64,000 bases of DNA. It comes from Candidatus Peribacteria bacterium (GTDB lineage: Bacteria > Patescibacteriota > Gracilibacteria > Peribacterales > Peribacteraceae). The stretch is taken from the NCBI GenBank assembly GCA_041691135.1, contig JBEPVF010000003.1, forward strand, positions 1 through 64,000, given 5' to 3'. Position numbers and translations under genes: made by a program. Shown here piece after piece: positions 5,556-30,253 of the stretch. Numbering within the stretch: the first letter of the stretch is position 1; each line of letters begins with the position of its first letter. The notes under the pieces are model-generated. The model made no database searches and was not told the origin of the DNA. It was given only the letters and a program-made list of their open reading frames with translations.

Positions 5556-5903
5556 ATGAATAGAAAAGAAATACTCGATGCCATTGCCTATGCGGGTATT
5601 GAAGACGGCGCGCGCCTTGTCCGCTATGACGGCAGTGACAGGCGACAAAAAATTATGGCGCTCTTGCACACAAATCGACAAGGGCACTGGATTGATCATG
5701 CGACGGAGTTACGGGCGCTACTTGAGCAGCAGATACCGGAATGTGCCTTCATTGATGATAGAATCACCAATTCTACCCGGGCAACATGCTTCCGCATTGT
5801 CGAAGAATTCTATAGGCGCCGTGGCACCGAGCCCAATGCGTCCTCTTATGGATTGATGTACGACAAATTCGATGTACTGAACCACATTGATTCCATCAGA
5901 TGA
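5556..5903 (+). CDS. Hypothetical protein (paralog of 5188-5532)
   Basis: MNRKEILDAIAYAGIEDGARLVR; shared W..HA.ELRA.LE, C...VEEFY. Confidence 0.7.
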   Translation: MNRKEILDAIAYAGIEDGARLVRYDGSDRRQKIMALLHTNRQGHWIDHATELRALLEQQIPECAFIDDRITNSTRATCFRIVEEFYRRRGTEPNASSYGLMYDKFDVLNHIDSIR

Positions 5904-7169
5904 TCACGCTGCAATCCCCGGCACGGGGAATTTTTTGCAGAAGGTCTTCACTTCCTCGTGCAGTGCGTTGATCGCCGATGCATCGTCTTTTTTGGCGATG
6001 GCTTGGAGCATGAAATTGCCCAGTATCTCCATCTCTGCTTCTTTCATACCGCGAGTGGTGATGGCCGGCGTGCCGAGGCGGACGCCCGATGGGTCCATCG
6101 GCGATCGCTTGTCGTCGGCGATCATGTTCTTGTTCAGCGTGATGCCGATGCTGTCGAACAGGTGTTCCACTTCTTTGCCGGGCATGTTCCACGATGTGAT
6201 GCAGTCGATCATCATCAGGTGATTATCCGTTCCGTTGGTGACGAGCTTCACGTTCTTATCCATGAAGAACTTGGCCAGATGTTTGGCATTCTTGATGATC
6301 TGTTGGGCGTAGTCTTTGAATTCCGGCTTCTGCGCTTCGCCGAAGGCCACGGCCTTGGCTGCCACCATCTGCATGATCGGGCCGCCCTGGAAGCCTGGGA
6401 AGACCATCTTGTCCATCTTCTTGCCCAACTCCGCCTCGCGGGTCAAAATCATGCCGCCGCGGGGTCCGCGCAGTGTTTTGTGCGTGGTCGTGGTGATCAC
6501 GTCGAAGCCATCTTCAAACGGATTGCGCAGCGCCTTGCCAGCGATGAGGCCGGCGATGTGCGCCATGTCGGCGACGGTGTAAGCACCTACTTCGTCGGCA
6601 ATCGCTTTCATCTTCGCGTAGTCGAGTTCACGTGGGTAGGCCGAGAACCCAGCCAGAATGATCTTTGGCTTCTCGCGCTTGGCGACCTCGCGCATTTCGT
6701 CGTAATCGATGGCGCCCGTCTCGACGTCCTTCATCTTGTACCGCACGAATTTGAAGATCTTGGTGAGGTAGGTGATCGGATGTCCGTGGGTCAGGTGTCC
6801 GCCGTGGCTCAGGTCCATGCCCATCACTGTGTCGCCTGGTTCCAACAGTGCGAAGTACATGGCCACGTTGGCGGGTGCTCCGGCATGTGGCTGTACGTTG
6901 GCATGGCCGGCATCGAACAGCTGCTTGGCTCGGTCGATGGCCAGTTGCTCCACTTGATCGGTGTATTCCTGTCCGCCGTAATAGCGCTTGCCTGGATAAC
7001 CTTCGGAGTATTTGTTGTTGAACACGGTGCCCATCGTCTCGAGGACGGCAGGGGACACGTAGTTCTCGGATGCGATCAGTTCCACGCCTTCCACCTGGCG
7101 CTTCATTTCGCCCATCAGTGCGGCGTACACGGCGGGGTCGGCGGCTTGGAGGGCGGTGTAGGTGGGCAT
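5904..7169 (-). CDS. glyA: Serine hydroxymethyltransferase
   Basis: LIASENY, NKYSEGYPGKRYYGG, GGHLTHG, TTTHKTLRGPRGG (PLP Lys), SGVRLGTPAITTRG. Confidence 0.98.
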   Translation of the reverse strand: MPTYTALQAADPAVYAALMGEMKRQVEGVELIASENYVSPAVLETMGTVFNNKYSEGYPGKRYYGGQEYTDQVEQLAIDRAKQLFDAGHANVQPHAGAPANVAMYFALLEPGDTVMGMDLSHGGHLTHGHPITYLTKIFKFVRYKMKDVETGAIDYDEMREVAKREKPKIILAGFSAYPRELDYAKMKAIADEVGAYTVADMAHIAGLIAGKALRNPFEDGFDVITTTTHKTLRGPRGGMILTREAELGKKMDKMVFPGFQGGPIMQMVAAKAVAFGEAQKPEFKDYAQQIIKNAKHLAKFFMDKNVKLVTNGTDNHLMMIDCITSWNMPGKEVEHLFDSIGITLNKNMIADDKRSPMDPSGVRLGTPAITTRGMKEAEMEILGNFMLQAIAKKDDASAINALHEEVKTFCKKFPVPGIAA

Positions 7170-13188: not shown

Positions 13189-13776
13189 ATGATCCTGTCC
13201 GATCGTGATATCAAAAAGGCGCTCGAAGCTGGCCGCGTTAAAATCGATAGGCCGGCAAGTGACTACCTGCCCCATATCCATGCCTCGAGCATGGACATGC
13301 GACTCGGCAGTACATTCAAGTTGTATGAGCACAGCAAATTTGCCGTTCTGGACCCCAAGCGGCCCGAAACGTTCCATGGACTGATGCGGACGATCGTAGT
13401 TGCCGAAGGCGAGTCGTATATGGTGCAGCCGGGGGAGTTTGTGTTGGGTGTGACGCAGGAAACAATCACATTGCCGGATGATCTGGTGGCGCGGGTGGAA
13501 GGGCGCAGTTCACTTGGTCGACTTGGCATTATCGTTCACTCAACCGCAGGGTTCGTGGACCCGGGTTTCTCGGGCACCATCACGCTCGAGATCAGCAATC
13601 TGAACCGCATGCCGGTGGCGTTGTATCCAGGCATGCGCATCTGCCAATTGGCCTTCGAAGTGATGTCGAGCCCGGCCGATATGCCGTACAATATGAAGCC
13701 GCACAGCAAATACCAGAATCAGGTGTTACCGGAGGAAAGCAGGCTGTCGAGCGATCCGGAGTTCGTAAAGGCCTGA
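13189..13776 (+). CDS. dcd: dCTP deaminase
   Basis: MILSDRDI, EGRSSLGRLG, TAGFVDPGFSGTITLE, GMRICQL, KYQNQ. Confidence 0.96.
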   Translation: MILSDRDIKKALEAGRVKIDRPASDYLPHIHASSMDMRLGSTFKLYEHSKFAVLDPKRPETFHGLMRTIVVAEGESYMVQPGEFVLGVTQETITLPDDLVARVEGRSSLGRLGIIVHSTAGFVDPGFSGTITLEISNLNRMPVALYPGMRICQLAFEVMSSPADMPYNMKPHSKYQNQVLPEESRLSSDPEFVKA

Positions 13777-13824
13777 TAAGGGGATGACTCCGGCATACGT
13801 TTCTATTACCATTCACTCCCGCTT

Positions 13825-13853
13825 GGACGATTATCGGCCCAGGCCGATGGTTA
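13825..13853 (+). repeat. tRNA-Val 5' fragment copy 1 with hairpin substitution
   Basis: GGACGATTA-TCGGCCCAGGCCGA-TGGTTA versus tRNA GGACGATTA-GCTCAGC-TGGTTA. Confidence 0.8.
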
Positions 13854-13883
13854 CAGACTAGGACTCATCTTTTACTCTCACAT

Positions 13884-13915
13884 GGACGATTATCCGCCAC
13901 AGGCGGATGGTTAGA
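13884..13915 (+). repeat. tRNA-Val 5' fragment copy 2 with hairpin substitution
   Basis: GGACGATTA-TCCGCCACAGGCGGA-TGGTTAGA. Confidence 0.8.
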
Positions 13916-13941
13916 CCCTCAGATCTCTCTCATTCTTACTT

Positions 13942-14018
13942 GGACGATTAGCTCAGCTGGTTAGAGCGTGCGATTCACATTCGCAAGGTCACTGGTTCGA
14001 ACCCAGTATCGTCCACCA
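13942..14018 (+). tRNA. tRNA-Val (anticodon CAC)
   Basis: Cloverleaf: GGACGAT/ATCGTCC acceptor, GCTC/GAGC D stem, TGCGA-TT-CAC-AT-TCGCA anticodon arm, ACTGG-TTCGAAC-CCAGT T arm, encoded CCA; 77 nt. Confidence 0.96.
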
Positions 14019-14037
14019 CACAATTCTCGCATCGTGT

Positions 14038-14304
14038 ATGTATAGCGTTTATGTTATTCAAAATATTCAAGGTATTCTCTATAAAGGATTTACGAAGGAT
14101 CTAAAAAAACGGATAGCACAACACAATGCTCCTGATGGTTTCAAATCCTATACTTCTAAGAGAGGTCCCTGGAAACTTGTATATGTAGAAGAGTTTCCAA
14201 CAGAACTAGAAGCAAAAAGCAGAGAAAAATTCCTTAAGTCAGGAAAGGGCAGAGATTTTTTAAAAGAAATGATTGGACGATTATCGGTCCAGGCGGATGG
14301 CTAG
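14038..14304 (+). CDS. Stand-alone GIY-YIG nuclease family protein
   Basis: YSVYVI...LYKGFTKDLKKRIAQHN...YTSKRGPWKLVYVE...AKSREKFLKSGKGR. Confidence 0.92.
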   Translation: MYSVYVIQNIQGILYKGFTKDLKKRIAQHNAPDGFKSYTSKRGPWKLVYVEEFPTELEAKSREKFLKSGKGRDFLKEMIGRLSVQADG

Positions 14305-14374
14305 AGCGTGCGATTCATCCGCCGAGGCGGACAAGGTCTCCGACTAGGCGGTTCGAACCCAGTATCGTCCACCA
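14275..14374 (+). pseudogene. Full-length tRNA-Val copy disrupted by three hairpin substitutions
   Basis: Aligns end to end with 13942-14018; 77+7+8+8=100 nt; the anticodon is destroyed. Confidence 0.85.
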
Positions 14375-14384
14375 TCAATTTTCT

Positions 14385-14894
14385 TTAGAAAATAGTTAGC
14401 CGTTTATTTAAAGGGGTAGCCATGACGCTAGCAATAGCAAACCAGGAAACCATCCATAACAGAATCCACATCGCAAACATATTTGGTACTGGCCCCCACT
14501 CTAGCCCCGCTAAACCATCAAGAACTTTTTTTATAAAATAGAGGGTTCCCATGAGCATAAAAATTCCAGTCACAACAAAAAGGAGTCGATTCCATTTTTC
14601 TGAAAAATACCGACGCAAGATTACAATAAGGAATATGAAAATTGGCAAAAAAATGGTGAATGCAAGCAGTGCTGTCACTCGATTTCCCACACCCTGATAA
14701 TACTGCACACCGAGAGCGTAATTTCCAATTTCTTGTAAGCTCATAATCATTTTATCCCCCCTTTGTCCTGCAAGTCCTGGCGTTGGCACTTGAAACGGTG
14801 AAACATACAATCGAGAAGCTATGAAATATATCGCACATAAACCAAGTATTATTGCAATGAGGCTGGCGGCTTTTATTGTGTGAGATTTAGTCAT
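14385..14894 (-). CDS. Hypothetical membrane protein (about 4 TM), AT-rich
   Basis: 169-aa ORF with four hydrophobic segments. Confidence 0.7.
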   Translation of the reverse strand: MTKSHTIKAASLIAIILGLCAIYFIASRLYVSPFQVPTPGLAGQRGDKMIMSLQEIGNYALGVQYYQGVGNRVTALLAFTIFLPIFIFLIVILRRYFSEKWNRLLFVVTGIFMLMGTLYFIKKVLDGLAGLEWGPVPNMFAMWILLWMVSWFAIASVMATPLNKRLTIF

Positions 14895-14952
14895 AGAGAA
14901 GAAGTAATACTGTGTGGATTATCCTGCTTATACAGTTTAGCAGGTACAACTG

Positions 14953-15100
14953 CACCATGGCACGGTCGTGTCATTTTTCGAAAAAGACACCCTGCGCAAT
15001 CAGGCGTAAGCTGTTTGCTAGAGCAGAGAAAAGACACTTTCCAATTTTGAATACGTTTCATTAATCTCAGTTCGAACGTCGTACAGTTTCGTCCACCAAG
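14953..15100 (+). repeat. 148-bp degenerate direct repeat A ending in the tRNA-Val 3' end (att-like)
   Basis: CACCATGGCAC...CGTGTCATTTT...CAGGCG.AAG...CGAACGTC...CAGTTTCGTCCACCAAG; same length and anchors as 15971-16118. Confidence 0.75.
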
Positions 15101-15141
15101 AACTTGCAAAATATGAGATATGTATTTAATGTACATTTCAT

Positions 15142-15957
15142 ATGAAACCGCGCAGCCCAGAGTTTGGTAATTGGGTGAGAACTACTAGAGAGGAAAACAG
15201 GCTTTCGCAGCAAGATCTAGCTAAATTAGCGAGTATCAGTCAACAAACAGTATCGAAAATTGAACGTACGGGAATTGTCCCTCCCGATGTCTCAATCGAG
15301 CGCATTTGTATGGCCTTGCATAGGGAGATGTCTGAAGGGTTGGCAATAGTGAACAGACAGACAACCAATCAATTATTTTTACTATGTGAAGGTTCACGAC
15401 GAGAATTCATACAGCGCCTTAGCCAACACGCTAGCAAAAATGATAAAGTAGGTGTCTTCTTCTTGGAAGAAGGAGGCCCGTTAGATCCTCAAAAATTCGC
15501 AATTGATTGGCATCGTCGAGTACTTGATACGTCACCAAAAATATATTCTTCTCTATTGTTTCGTTTCCCGGAGGACTCGATCAATTTCAATTTATACTGG
15601 CATGAAATGCAAAGATTAGTTCCTGGAAGTGAGAACCGTTTCAGGGGTTTTAATCGTCATCCAAATTTTGTGGAAGATAGAAATAGAGCTTTACCAGTTG
15701 CAAGAGAACAGATTCTCATGACTACCCCCCAAGGTCCAGACCTCTACTCTCATTTTTTGGACCCAGATGCTTTTGACGCAGAACTTCATCTTAAGACGCC
15801 TCATTTTGAGGCAAAATCCAAAGCTATGAAATTACAACCTTCAACTCCAGAAAGAGCAACAAAAGCTTCCCAGTATCTGGGTTTAACTTCTTTTACAGAA
15901 GTTGATCCTGAGCGATGGATTCATATAAATCCGTTGGCTAGTGGCAACGAAAAATAA
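15142..15957 (+). CDS. XRE-family HTH protein with unknown C-terminal domain
   Basis: FGNWVRTTREENRLSQQDLAKLASISQQTVSKIERTG. Confidence 0.82.
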   Translation: MKPRSPEFGNWVRTTREENRLSQQDLAKLASISQQTVSKIERTGIVPPDVSIERICMALHREMSEGLAIVNRQTTNQLFLLCEGSRREFIQRLSQHASKNDKVGVFFLEEGGPLDPQKFAIDWHRRVLDTSPKIYSSLLFRFPEDSINFNLYWHEMQRLVPGSENRFRGFNRHPNFVEDRNRALPVAREQILMTTPQGPDLYSHFLDPDAFDAELHLKTPHFEAKSKAMKLQPSTPERATKASQYLGLTSFTEVDPERWIHINPLASGNEK

Positions 15958-15970
15958 TTGAACGTCAAGT

Positions 15971-16118
15971 CACCATGGCACTCACGTGTCATTTTCGCGA
16001 AAAGCTGACATGTAAAAGCAGGCGCAAGTCGCTACCTGTAGGAACGAAAGTGAACCCTTCAATCGCTGACAGGTATCGCAAACCTCATTCCGAACGTCAT
16101 GCAGTATCGTCCACCAAG
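15971..16118 (+). repeat. 148-bp degenerate direct repeat B ending in the tRNA-Val 3' end (att-like)
   Basis: Ends CAGTATCGTCCACCA, identical to the last 15 nt of tRNA-Val. Confidence 0.75.
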
Positions 16119-16121
16119 TCA

Positions 16122-16151
16122 TTGACATGTATATTAAAAAATGTCTAAAAT
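16122..16151 (+). promoter_or_regulatory. Sigma70-type promoter
   Basis: TTGACA-N18-TAAAAT, 6 nt before the ATG at 16158. Confidence 0.6.
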
Positions 16152-16157
16152 TTATTT

Positions 16158-16562
16158 ATGGGAAAGTTTGAACTTAAAATTGGGCGACTTGATATCGATC
16201 CCCGGCGTTTAGAATTCACTGGGAGTGATCCATACGATGCTGTTCATAAATTTATTGTCGAGCATGCAGACGCTGCAATGCTTCTTTTTGCATGTGCTGA
16301 TGCGAGTAGACACTGGGAGGTAAGAAACCATTTTGGAAAGAGGGATGATGATCTTGTAGCGGGCGGAAGTTTGTACACGAGAGATGAAAAACTGATTCTG
16401 GCTGATTATTCGGGAGATTATGGCGCTCTTCCCCCAGAGGAGGCTCAAGTATTGGCAGAGCTGACATTGCAACACCTGGCTGAAAATTTCGGCCTTAACC
16501 TTAAAAAGGCTTCAGGCATACCTTCCAATCGAGGTTCAGTGAATCCAATGTGGTCTAAATAA
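16158..16562 (+). CDS. Hypothetical protein
   Basis: 134-aa ORF with its own promoter. Confidence 0.65.
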   Translation: MGKFELKIGRLDIDPRRLEFTGSDPYDAVHKFIVEHADAAMLLFACADASRHWEVRNHFGKRDDDLVAGGSLYTRDEKLILADYSGDYGALPPEEAQVLAELTLQHLAENFGLNLKKASGIPSNRGSVNPMWSK

Positions 16563-16657
16563 CTATTAGATGTAAATCATTTGCTGCAATAGAGCAAAAG
16601 CACGTTCCATTTGGGCATATGTCTTCCTGATTTCCTGTCTGTCTTCTTCAAATAAAT

Positions 16658-18100
16658 TTGATTAGCATGCTCACTATGAACTTCGCCGGAGTGTTGTTCT
16701 GGTTATTTTTTGCCTTCTTCTACGGTGTTTTTTTACTGGTTCGAAAAAACATTCCGCTTCGAAATGTGTATCTCCTTGCCGTCAGTTATTGGTGTATCTG
16801 GCTATGGGATGGCCGATTGGTAGCCGTTTTGCTTGTGGTAACCGCCAGTAGTTTTGCGATTGGGCAATTGCTGCCGCGTATCCAGCGGACTGCGAGTCGC
16901 AGAACTGCATTCATTGCTGTTATCTGCTTGTACGTGGGGCTGCTGGGCTATTGCAAATACACCGGGTTTTTCGCCGATACGTTGTCATCACTCCTACGGC
17001 CTTACGGTTTTGCGATTGATACTCCTACTGTCGGCATTCTGCTGCCGCTCGGTCTTTCTTTTTACCTCTTCCAGGTCATCAGCTATCTGGCTGATATTTA
17101 TACCGGTAAACAGGAACCAAGCACGAACTGGATTCAATACGCGCTTTTCCTCGCGTTTTTCCCTAAATTTATTGCGGGTCCCATCGAACGCGCATCGCAT
17201 CTGCTGCCGCAATTTGATGCACAACAGCCGGTGACCAGATCCATGCTTTCCGAAGGTTTGTATCTGATCGTATGGGGACTGATTCTCAAATTCTGCATTG
17301 CCGATAATGCGGCGCCTATTGCCGCGTTGCAGTTTGCTCAGTACGACAATCTGCAATTCTATGCGATTGGGAGTCCGCTGGCGCTTACCTTGCAAATCTA
17401 TGCCGACTTTTCGGGTTACACGAATATCGCCCGGGGCATGGCGCAGCTGATGGGATTCTCGCTGACTGCGAACTTCGACATGCCGTACATCTCGCGCTCG
17501 CCGCGCGAATTTTGGCGGCGCTGGCACAGAAGTCTGTCGCAGTGGGTTCGCGATTACATCTACATTCCACTCGGCGGCAACCGGCACGGCACCCTCAAAA
17601 TGTATCGTAACCTGTTCATCACCATGCTGCTTGCCGGGCTGTGGCACGGAGCCAGCTGGCCGTTCGTGTTCTGGGGCATGTATCAGGGGCTCCTCCTCAT
17701 CTACTACGATATGTTTGGCAAGATGTTGGAGCCGTATCCTGCGTTCAGTCGGGTTCTTGCACATCCTCTCATTTCGATTCCGTTTTACTTTCTGCTCACC
17801 GTAGTCGGTTGGATCCTGTTCAGCAGTCAATCGGTCGCGCAGTTTCTGGTTATCCTCACATCGATTGGCAAACTGATCCTACATGGCCAGGTGCTGACAA
17901 ATGATTACGCACTGCCGCTGGCAATTGTTCTCTGGTTGCCGATTATTCTGATGGAGTCGCTGCAACTGCTCTCGAAGCAGCAGTATGTCGTGCCACGCCT
18001 ATCGATCTTCTCTCAGGTACTTTTTTACTATGCCGCCTGCTACGCCTTGATCTTTTTCACGCCTTTCACCGTACAAGAATTCATCTATGGTCAATTCTAA
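16658..18100 (+). CDS. MBOAT family O-acyltransferase (AlgI/PatA/DltB-like); start may be slightly downstream
   Basis: LPLGLSFY, FFPKFIAGPIER, QIYADFSGY, EFWRRWH.SLS.W.RDYIYIPLGG, GLWHGA. Confidence 0.93.
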   Translation: MISMLTMNFAGVLFWLFFAFFYGVFLLVRKNIPLRNVYLLAVSYWCIWLWDGRLVAVLLVVTASSFAIGQLLPRIQRTASRRTAFIAVICLYVGLLGYCKYTGFFADTLSSLLRPYGFAIDTPTVGILLPLGLSFYLFQVISYLADIYTGKQEPSTNWIQYALFLAFFPKFIAGPIERASHLLPQFDAQQPVTRSMLSEGLYLIVWGLILKFCIADNAAPIAALQFAQYDNLQFYAIGSPLALTLQIYADFSGYTNIARGMAQLMGFSLTANFDMPYISRSPREFWRRWHRSLSQWVRDYIYIPLGGNRHGTLKMYRNLFITMLLAGLWHGASWPFVFWGMYQGLLLIYYDMFGKMLEPYPAFSRVLAHPLISIPFYFLLTVVGWILFSSQSVAQFLVILTSIGKLILHGQVLTNDYALPLAIVLWLPIILMESLQLLSKQQYVVPRLSIFSQVLFYYAACYALIFFTPFTVQEFIYGQF

Positions 18101-29650: not shown

Positions 29651-30253
29651 ATGCCTGACCGATTGATTCTTGCATCGGCCAGTCCACAGCGGAAGCAGCT
29701 GCTAAACGGACTCGGTTTGTCGTTCGATGTGATTCCCAGCACGGTTAGCGAGGAGCAACATACCGAGAAAAATCCCGGCAAGCGGGCCGTCGATTTGGCC
29801 GTACTCAAGGCGAAAAACATCGCGCAGAAATACGATGGTGCCTGGGTGATCGGCTGCGATACCCTTGTCTTGGCTCACAATGGAACACTCCTCGAAAAGC
29901 CCAAAGATGCGGAGGATGCGCGTCGTATGATCGCGATGCAGAGTGGCAAAACGTCGGTCGTGCATTCCGGTTTGTGCCTGCAGGCTCCGGATGGTCGTTC
30001 GATGCATGATCTCTCATCATCATCGGTTCATTTTGCGGCGCTGACGGAGGAGCAAATCGATTGGTGGGTACAGACAAATCTATGGTCGGAGCGGTCAGGC
30101 GCTTTCCAGATCGATGGCTTGGGGCAGTTGATGATCGAACGAATCGAAGGTGACTGGACGAGCATCGTGGGGCTGCCGGTGTTTTTGCTGGGCACCATGA
30201 TGCATGCGATGAACTACAGCGATCAACGAATGGCGCCCAGTGAGCAGCGTTGA
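29651..30253 (+). CDS. maf: Maf-like nucleoside triphosphate pyrophosphatase
   Basis: LILASASPQRKQLL, IGCDTLV, LEKP, GAFQI.G, I.GD...IVGLP. Confidence 0.92.
   Translation: MPDRLILASASPQRKQLLNGLGLSFDVIPSTVSEEQHTEKNPGKRAVDLAVLKAKNIAQKYDGAWVIGCDTLVLAHNGTLLEKPKDAEDARRMIAMQSGKTSVVHSGLCLQAPDGRSMHDLSSSSVHFAALTEEQIDWWVQTNLWSERSGAFQIDGLGQLMIERIEGDWTSIVGLPVFLLGTMMHAMNYSDQRMAPSEQR

Follow-up and report, generated by a model that had tools for sequence, protein, structure and literature searches.

A tRNA-Val-linked array of single genes and repeats in a Candidatus Peribacteria genome: probable relics of large serine recombinase islands

The locus downstream of tRNA-Val(cac)

The stretch of DNA analysed here, referred to as the window, comprises positions 1 to 64,000 of contig JBEPVF010000003.1 from the Candidatus Peribacteria assembly GCA_041691135.1. 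Downstream of its tRNA-Val(cac) gene lie four genes, encoding a GIY-YIG protein, a predicted membrane protein, a protein with an XRE-type helix-turn-helix (HTH) domain named XRE271, and a hypothetical protein, set between or behind copies of the tRNA 3' end and of a longer repeat, the units R1, R2 and R3 (Table 1). This array is considered below together with islands of related genomes that carry a gene for a large serine recombinase (LSR).

The core of the repeats, CAGTWTCGTCCACCA, is the last 15 nt of tRNA-Val(cac). An earlier reading made from the window alone, called here the sequence-only reading, had counted four copies, and these, at 14004, 14360, 15084 and 16102, are indeed the only matches in the 1.74-Mb assembly: all are located on the plus strand within the window, and a pattern search found none elsewhere. 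There were no reverse matches in the assembly, and a control with the reversed pattern also gave none. The three recurrences downstream of the tRNA gene thus stand on the same strand as the gene itself. Every one-gene segment is flanked by core repeats, and neither the list of open reading frames (ORFs) nor Pfam places a recombinase among the segments. The membrane protein gene that precedes R1 is on the minus strand, the other three genes being on the plus strand, so that the cassettes are not uniformly oriented. The stretch is AT-rich, as had been noticed, with a GC content of 0.39-0.45 across about 13900-16700 versus 0.50-0.59 in both flanks.

Table 1. Features of the tRNA-Val locus in the window, with positions in nucleotides.
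Feature	Position	Strand	Evidence
tRNA-Val-like 5' fragment: GGACGATTA, then a GC-rich palindrome, then TGGTTA	13823..13865	+	repeat families D1, D2, D5
Second tRNA-Val-like 5' fragment, of the same build	13882..13920	+	repeat families D1, D2
tRNA-Val(cac), live gene; core copy 1 at 14004-14018	13942..14018	+	ARAGORN; Rfam tRNA, 68.6 bits
GIY-YIG domain protein, 88 aa	14038..14304	+	Pfam PF01541, E 2.7e-17
Pseudo-tRNA-Val, full-length copy interrupted by three GC-rich palindromes; core copy 2 at 14360-14374	14273..14374	+	alignment A1; repeat families D3-D7; no call from ARAGORN or Rfam
Predicted membrane protein, 169 aa	14385..14894	-	ORF list; no family in Pfam, PHROGs, PADLOC or NCBIfam
Unit R1, coding sense on the minus strand; core copy 3 at 15084-15098	14943..15100	+	relatives-only HMM, E 2.7e-35, model positions 2-157; covariance model, 147.2 bits
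R1 hairpin ATGGCAC-GGTC-GTGTCAT followed by TTTTT, terminator-like on the plus strand	14957..14974	+	alignment fold, 7 pairs; terminator scan
C-terminal LSR tail as left in R1: WWTKLYDVRTEINETYSKLESVFSLL ended by a premature TAG; 26 codons versus 30-33 in intact tails	15018..15098	-	translation; comparison with 32 units
XRE271: N-terminal XRE-type HTH and C-terminal part of ~200 aa, 271 aa in all	15142..15957	+	Pfam HTH_31, E 1.6e-8; no family for the C-terminal part (Pfam, PHROGs, PADLOC, NCBIfam)
Unit R2; hairpin at ~15975-15992; core copy 4 at 16102-16116	15963..16118	+	relatives-only HMM, E 9.7e-28; covariance model, 121.4 bits
R2 remnant of the LSR tail, diverged (WWTILHDVRNEVCDTCQRLKGSLSFLQ...), conserved stop lost; 44 codons until the next stop	15982..16116	-	translation
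Promoter-like TTGACA-18-TAAAAT upstream of the 134-aa gene	16122..16151	+	consensus scan, 11/12; consensus match alone
Hypothetical protein, 134 aa	16158..16562	+	ORF list; no match in Pfam, PADLOC or NCBIfam
Unit R3, truncated (model positions 53-126), lacking hairpin and core; antisense RQEIRKTYAQMERAFALLQQMIYI, then a stop	16561..16634	+	relatives-only HMM, E 7.2e-7; translation

The sequence-only reading had also found no integrase in the window, and this stands: in the window genome PF00589, PF00239 and PF07508 have matches solely on contigs C1, C2, C12 and C28, contig C3, the window included, being free of them. Its promoter-like site behind each repeat holds for R2 (11 of 12 consensus positions), while none passes the scan after R1; the consensus scan returned four sites versus 6.8 expected, that is, no enrichment. 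Contigs assembled from one sequencing run, the probable source of the genome, contain no joints or alternative forms over 13500-17200, contigs being unable to reveal rare forms. One such Logan contig begins at ~14926 of the window with a loose 19-nt end, an assembly artefact which we take to be the Nextera transposase adaptor.

Two of the array genes were examined for links to known or neighbouring families and dropped from consideration. XRE271 was considered as a hidden recombinase or a standard element gene; its HTH alone matches families, and a homologue is present in two of the 151 family genomes. The 169-aa membrane protein was compared with the unit-adjacent membrane protein c26 of relatives, with a BLASTP E value of 1.2.

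The repeat unit and the serine recombinase islands of relatives

R1 and R2 are homologous beyond the core, as had been supposed. Without it (14953-15083 versus 15971-16101) 81 of 131 ungapped positions are identical, with z = 10 over 1000 mononucleotide shuffles, and in the middle 76 nt alone 39 positions are identical, a score reached by two of 1000 shuffles. The pair of 148-bp repeats originally delimited, 14953-15100 and 15971-16118, is real, but the unit proper has ~157 nt and the truncated third copy, R3, had not been listed. A hidden Markov model (HMM) trained on 37 units, all from genomes other than that of the window, recognizes all three copies with scores that drop with distance from the tRNA gene (Table 1). 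A search of the own genome, which the sequence-only reading had proposed along with a search of relatives, gave four full units with nhmmer: two in the window, one in a tRNA-Asn island on C2 and one on C1.

Among relatives the hairpin motif of the unit was sought in a sample of 60 genomes from the same family, 12 of which possess it, and in 40 genomes representing other families within the class, all without a match. With a covariance model built from 14 copies the unit was detected in 44 of 151 family genomes, representing 35 of 84 genera, mostly as a single copy; the contigs bearing it are labelled Candidatus Peribacteria, Peribacteraceae or Peregrinibacteria. Over the genome collection the hairpin pattern was found in 61 stretches versus ~69 expected by chance at uniform base composition. 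When 18 loci (17 from the pattern scan and one viral contig) were tested with the unit model, 11 gave strong matches, ten of them assigned to Peribacteria, Peregrinibacteria, Patescibacteria or "uncultured bacterium" and one binned as Pseudobdellovibrionaceae. The latter contig, from an uncultured member of that family (L086), carries a full unit scoring 130.9 bits; a contig assigned to Peribacteria in the same study has an equal score, and L086 is probably a mis-binned contig of that group. A phage origin of the unit was considered and rejected: IMG/VR contains a single sequence with the hairpin pattern, which falls within a long ORF and has a score of 26.6 bits, and for these two reasons is regarded as a chance match.

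The only helix conserved in the unit alignments is a 7-bp hairpin followed by a run of T (RNAalifold with 4 and 14 sequences; pair scan with 40 sequences), with compensatory changes among relatives in an alignment judged by eye. A structured tRNA-like non-coding RNA gene, possessing a T-arm and an acceptor-like 3' end and duplicated near tRNA-Val, would account for a 3' end resembling T-loop, acceptor and CCA as well as for the single copy in most genomes. Such a gene is hardly credible here: at E values up to 10 Rfam matches nothing but the tRNA, single-sequence folding yields z-scores of -1.07 to +0.58 versus shuffles, the 14- and 40-sequence alignments pair consistently at the hairpin alone, the hairpin and its T-run are at the 5' end of the unit on the plus strand, and there is a three-base periodicity that fits coding.

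Judged by its sequence, the unit in antisense is the end of an LSR gene, comprising its last ~32 codons, a short 3' untranslated region (UTR) and the hairpin. Read from CCACCA in the frame that begins with Trp-Trp (WW), the antisense strand is open for 30-33 codons and closes with a stop at a fixed place, and the peptide is conserved as WWxKLYDVRTEIxETYxxLxxAFSLLQxxxYA. Column entropy over this 32-codon frame is 1.04, 0.88 and 1.44 at codon positions 1, 2 and 3, versus 1.48, 1.45 and 1.32 past the stop; because the codon periodicity is confined to the frame and is lost beyond it, the conservation of the unit is that of a protein-coding sequence.

Genes in which body and tail are still joined were also found. 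An exhaustive profile search with one LSR provided 150 relatives which, together with seven proteins from a word-index database search with the C-terminus, made 157 proteins examined. In P0021, P0028, P0068 and, more distantly, P0014, body and tail form one chain of the type ...EWW-S-x-LYDVRTEI..., and the seven word-index homologues are all integrated forms, every one encoded on the reverse strand next to attL with its ORF extending into the target gene. In the metagenome contig L164 a gene like c1 (see below) precedes a 538-aa LSR ending in ...VWWRGLYDVQTEILGTVEKMEHAFSLIQTGILA, which is followed after ~20 nt by the hairpin and then by a convergent gene. A match to the entire unit (E 6e-25) is found there on the opposite strand, with no tRNA nearby, and L164 is the unsplit form expected of the free (attP) state or of a tandem junction. 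Another locus, L166, is an integrated form at tRNA-Tyr. These comparisons place the attachment site inside the LSR ORF, at the WW codons. These mirror the tRNA 3' end and precede the stop of the ORF by ~32 codons. Since integrated and unsplit arrangements occur at different loci, integration appears to separate the LSR body from its tail.

The islands themselves were studied at 26 loci, where up to 20 kb around the units was fetched. In 21 of them a tRNA gene of the same strand lies 0.5-14.5 kb upstream of the unit, and the gene content in between varies from genome to genome. In ten loci an ORF of 493-592 aa follows the tRNA gene directly on the opposite strand, with its last codons inside the tRNA gene, and it is usually followed by the ~210-aa gene c1, which has no match in Pfam, NCBIfam or PADLOC and no detectable serine-recombinase domain. 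This ORF encodes the LSR. In the LSR-bearing islands the unit is located 5-14 kb away at the far end, the tRNA gene and LSR gene occupying the other. Only the LSR of L139 was scanned with Pfam, matching PF07508 (Recombinase, E 1.3e-12) and PF00239 (Resolvase, E 1.6e-7), and the other members were grouped with it through BLASTP clustering. In NCBIfam the LSR has weak matches to CcrB (49.7 bits versus a cut-off of 900) and XisF.

All ten full-length LSR genes of the fetched loci are on the reverse strand and run into the target tRNA gene. In antisense, the tRNA end CCACCA gives Trp-Trp in their frames, and GAGCCA gives Trp-Leu; past these residues the frames extend through the antisense of the tRNA by between a few and about twenty codons. 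The targets of LSR elements are genes for tRNA-Val, Asn, Ala, Tyr and His, and the 3' tail of the unit follows the identity of the tRNA: it is of the ...AGCCA type at all six Asn loci, ...TCGTCCACCA at Val(cac) and ...CTCGCCC at the His locus. Tandem unit arrays are present in the window (R1-R3) and in two relatives (G003:C8, G041:C1), and islets without LSR occur in relatives too. A small-terminase (Terminase_2) match with an E value of 5e-6 was observed in L139, at 5749-6366 (G121:C1), and in cluster c22 in L142; part of the LSR island family may be phage-related or satellite-like.

The full tail frame is intact in 20 of 32 scored units. Units behind an LSR are intact in nine of ten cases as labelled, or ten of 11 counting the C1 unit of the window genome, whose LSR falls just outside the fetched stretch; in the eleventh LSR-bearing unit the frame is open and the model cover partial. 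Among units without LSR ten of 21 are intact, and R1, R2 and R3 are all among the failures.

These results bear directly on the mechanism suggested by the sequence-only reading, a tRNA-anchored, integron-like platform into which a tyrosine integrase acting in trans inserts cassettes of 0.7-1 kb, the 148-bp unit being a portable arm of attC or attP type. The layout of repeats and genes is regular, and the C2 tRNA-Asn island, which also has a unit, contains a tyrosine integrase split into two ORFs. The platform is nevertheless very unlikely. The proposed arm is protein-coding in antisense and, in the unsplit genes, continuous with the LSR gene; its fold consists of the 7-bp hairpin and nothing more; G003, G041 and G121, with two to six units each, possess one Xer-type PF00589 gene each, on other contigs or far off; and one cassette gene is on the opposite strand. 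An integrase whose flank resembles the unit had been named as a check, and the attR beside the C2 integrase is unlike it. What survives of that mechanism is repeated insertion at the tRNA-Val 3' end by an enzyme encoded outside the window, which is, however, a large serine recombinase rather than an integron-type or other tyrosine integrase. The alternative that had been offered, relics of larger islands, agrees with the islands of relatives, which extend from a tRNA gene to a single unit with the LSR beside the tRNA.

Tyrosine recombinases were also rejected as the enzyme on other grounds. In the PF00589 search, which covered 151 genomes and 10 named ones, a match near a unit was found solely at G036:C4 and on C2 of the window genome; the two proteins are 19% identical to each other, and the G036 locus also carries an LSR. 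Use of the housekeeping recombinase, as by Xer-exploiting integrative mobile elements (IMEX), was considered as most genomes have one PF00589 gene, and was dropped after the link to the LSR was found; no dif-like inverted repeat is visible by eye in the unit.

The C2 tRNA-Asn island (C2:136485-145840, corresponding to 2486-11840 of L013) encodes a 1323-aa SNF2-type helicase with weak similarity to DpdE and ZorD, followed by a unit of the Asn type, a frameshifted second paralog, the tyrosine integrase split into 96 aa and 213 aa, and the tRNA-end repeat GGGGAGCCAAA. Two element types appear to be stacked there at one tRNA-Asn gene.

History of the array

The repeats of the window are probably the displaced 3' ends of LSR genes from successive insertions at the tRNA gene, and the array their relics. 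The free element, of 5-14 kb, would carry an LSR whose own frame contains the attachment site, with TGGTGG (Trp-Trp) as the antisense of the tRNA CCACCA end. Integration at the tRNA 3' end, by a crossover that may be placed within the last ~6-15 nt of the tRNA, would leave the LSR body beside the tRNA gene, reading antisense into it, and would move the ~32 tail codons, the 3' UTR and the hairpin to the opposite border, where they would adjoin the tRNA 3'-end repeat on its left side. The hairpin and T-run, facing the cargo genes in that position, could end cargo transcription before the LSR gene is entered from behind. At tRNA-Val at least three insertions seem to have succeeded one another, each later reduced to 0.5-1 kb, and the array would at present be immobile.

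Three tails in a row, each preceded by one AT-rich gene, are found downstream of tRNA-Val(cac) and its pseudo-copy. The best preserved, R1, is nearest to the tRNA gene, and the most eroded, R3, which in antisense retains merely ...EIRKTYAQMERAFALLQQMIYI, is farthest from it. As the repeats are cut-off ends of recombinase genes, the "cassette array" is probably one of worn-down insertions and not integron-like.

At the corresponding locus of G003, which belongs to the same genus, there are a pseudo-tRNA-Val, a one-gene segment and a unit, and next, on the syntenic contig, come a unit, the XRE gene and a partial unit. The homologue of XRE271 at this syntenic place is one of the only two found in the 151 family genomes. 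The XRE proteins of the window genome (G000) and G003 are 43% identical, and the adjacent housekeeping genes 38-76%; with its divergence inside the range of these neighbours, the XRE gene fits an old, vertically inherited gene. G003 holds six units in all and a single PF00589 match, of Xer type, and the L139 query yielded no LSR in it. In two other genomes of the genus, at G002:C4 (L161) and G004:C32 (L160), the dCTP deaminase gene and tRNA-Val(cac) stand in an inverted relative orientation, and no unit array follows the tRNA; the G002 locus lies ~2.2 kb from genes that stand 13 kb away in the window. Taken together, these features are consistent with insertions that piled up long ago, are now largely inactive and differ from one congener to another.

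Several observations weigh against relics of LSR islands as the origin of the array. The segments without LSR are tidy on their left side, in the window and on C2 alike, with a core, 41-57 nt and then a start codon, which random deletions would not obviously yield. Many units without LSR elsewhere keep an intact tail frame, for instance all three in G041:C1, a contig that does carry an LSR, with one internal TAG. The units of G000 and G003 are 76.5% identical over 145 nt, above the neutral expectation at that divergence, so that the copies are either younger than the genes between them or under selection. Finally, the Zn_ribbon_recom domain (PF13408) of the L139 LSR scores 20.4 bits, under the Pfam cut-off of 25.3.

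Tidy edges, open tails of orphan units and a complete element on C1 make an accretion-type life of the segments possible. The one-gene segments would then resemble cis-mobilisable elements (CIMEs), with usable sites of attL and attR type, and would be moved in trans by an LSR, either the 526-aa copy on C1 or an incoming one, through excision, reshuffling or accretion and co-mobilisation; an LSR landing beside an orphan unit would regain its full-length tail. Core repeats do bracket each segment, the spacing between core and ATG is the regular one noted above, and islets reaching from a tRNA gene to a unit without LSR are common in relatives, about half of them with an open tail frame. The genome also holds an intact LSR of the same family together with its own unit, in the element C1:18155-29853, composed of the 526-aa LSR gene, c1, c12, copper/heavy-metal ATPase cargo and the unit at 29695-29853. 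An analogous proposal exists for the Dehalococcoides ssrA islands that have no integration module, in the part of the paper drawn on here (PMC3146451). Mobile segments of this kind are rather unlikely in the window, where all three tails are damaged and R3 has no core; the C1 LSR is at a site of tRNA-Tyr type, its unit ending in ...CTGACCACCA and not in the Val type; the XRE cassette is known from one locus in two of 151 genomes, with a divergence comparable to that of its neighbours; and G003 has kept six units with no LSR found by the L139 query.

A bolder extension would see the split as a switch. Full-length LSR, with its 32-residue helical tail, would be made only on the circle or beside an orphan unit; the integrated LSR, with a short tRNA-antisense tail, would be altered in activity or directionality; and orphan units would serve as spare 3' exons that re-arm incoming LSRs, the segments travelling by accretion. 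Taken as a whole this is a speculative proposal, which we consider distinctly unlikely; if true, it would amount to a recombinase-completing landing pad in bacteria of the candidate phyla radiation (CPR).

Returning to the tRNA genes of the window genome, further sequences of note lie at or near their ends. Five small GIY-YIG paralogs are present, at 14038-14304 of the window and at C3:96322-96549, C1:92077-92268, C1:144632-144865 and C3:143947-144153, and four of the five directly follow tRNA genes: Val-cac, Gly-ccc, Leu-cag and Pro-tgg. One of them, behind tRNA-Gly(ccc), is moreover enclosed by a 15-nt repeat of the 3' end of this tRNA, with one mismatch, and looks like a separate class of tRNA-end insert. 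GIY-YIG genes (cluster c8) are also contained in the arrays of relatives. In the three tRNA-Val-like pieces of the window (13823-13865, 13882-13920 and 14273-14374) palindromes of the TCCGNCNAGGCGGA type are found at the places of the D-loop, the anticodon loop and the T-stem, and the same palindrome is at the anticodon-loop place of the pseudo-tRNA-Val of G003 (L159, G003:C11, ~880-950 on the minus strand). The acceptor stem of the live tRNA-Val(cac) in G003 differs, as if it had been replaced by an incoming copy. On C1, positions 2235-29853 downstream of tRNA-Tyr contain three serine recombinase ORFs, which are 256, 614 and 526 aa long. Two of these, the 614-aa gene (plus strand) and the 526-aa gene (minus strand), seem to converge on an 11-nt 3' fragment of tRNA-Tyr near C1:18160, and a second, odd tRNA-Tyr call is located at C1:2235-2319.

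Relation to known systems and significance

The array most plausibly consists of relics of a known type of element, belonging to a family that is new and found in a little-studied lineage. Its closest precedent is provided by the ssrA islands of Dehalococcoides (McMurdie et al. 2011), as described in the consulted part of that paper (PMC3146451), to which the following comparison is limited. In that genus a small RNA gene is followed by islands in tandem, every one of which closes with a copy of the 3' end of the gene. The associated DsiB, a CcrB-like serine recombinase of ~540 aa, is encoded on the reverse strand beside attL, its 3' end always overlapping attL, and its C-terminus is described as divergent. 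Many of the islands have no integration module and are discussed as cis-mobilisable elements, and the authors suggested that a complete DsiB gene may exist solely on the circle, or where the gene adjoins an island with "the requisite 3' gene fragment". Tandem arrangement, 3'-end repeats, a reverse-strand LSR overlapping attL and islands without module are thus common to both systems. In contrast, the Peribacteria elements target several tRNA genes instead of the tmRNA gene, their hosts, which have small genomes, belong to a CPR lineage, and c1 has no detectable serine-recombinase domain, unlike DsiA, the second, small serine recombinase of Dehalococcoides. Because of c1 and the tRNA targets they are regarded as relatives in architecture and not as members of the Dehalococcoides family. 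The two systems also differ in that the 3' fragment is identified here, as a conserved 32-codon peptide seen joined to its gene.

The Islander database, in the portion of its description used here (PMC4383910), collects islands in tRNA and tmRNA genes with a displaced 3' fragment, tandem arrays included, that are associated with tyrosine integrases. An intact tRNA gene at one end, a 3'-end repeat at the other, foreign composition and repeated use of the target are shared with the Peribacteria islands; in the latter, however, the enzyme is an LSR, and the conserved DNA beside the displaced fragment is part of the LSR gene. With CIMEs the segments of the window share flanking att-type repeats, the absence of recombination genes and the tandem position at one site, whereas the tails in the window are damaged. 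Examples of CIMEs and of accretion-mobilisation have reportedly been described in Streptococcus thermophilus. The concept of cis-mobilisable elements and of accretion and mobilisation among integrative and conjugative or integrative and mobilisable elements is cited in the same part of the Dehalococcoides paper (PMC3146451).

An attachment site within an ORF of the element, with integrated and free forms that differ in the C-terminus, is a feature shared with archaeal viruses and a mycobacteriophage. The int gene of SSV-type archaeal integrases is split on integration. In mycobacteriophage BPs immunity depends on integration, according to the portion of PMC4557955 consulted. Both of these use tyrosine integrases, and the split gene of BPs is that of the repressor; in Peribacteria the LSR loses ~32 residues and gains a short tail of tRNA antisense. 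Integrons have an IntI tyrosine recombinase beside attI, attC sites that are long imperfect hairpins, and arrays of short gene segments between repeats at one site. The window array resembles them in its short gene segments, the repeats between these and the single site, but it has neither IntI nor an attC-type hairpin, its repeat is coding, its genes face both ways and at least one gene has its own promoter-like site.

The reading of a tRNA-anchored integron is thereby replaced by a documented one, and for the window itself the outcome is an ordinary one, a probable graveyard of old insertions. The mobile elements of CPR bacteria are poorly described, and an open-access literature search combining Peribacteria, tRNA and integrase found no paper. 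To our knowledge, the joined and severed LSR genes are the clearest sequence evidence for the idea, put forward for Dehalococcoides in 2011, of a serine recombinase gene straddling its own attachment site, so that integration would remove the true C-terminus of the recombinase. In Peribacteria the ~157-nt unit is a marker for the far end of serine-recombinase islands and of their relics, and because it flags this end, island borders can be drawn from sequence alone in fragmented metagenome-assembled genomes.

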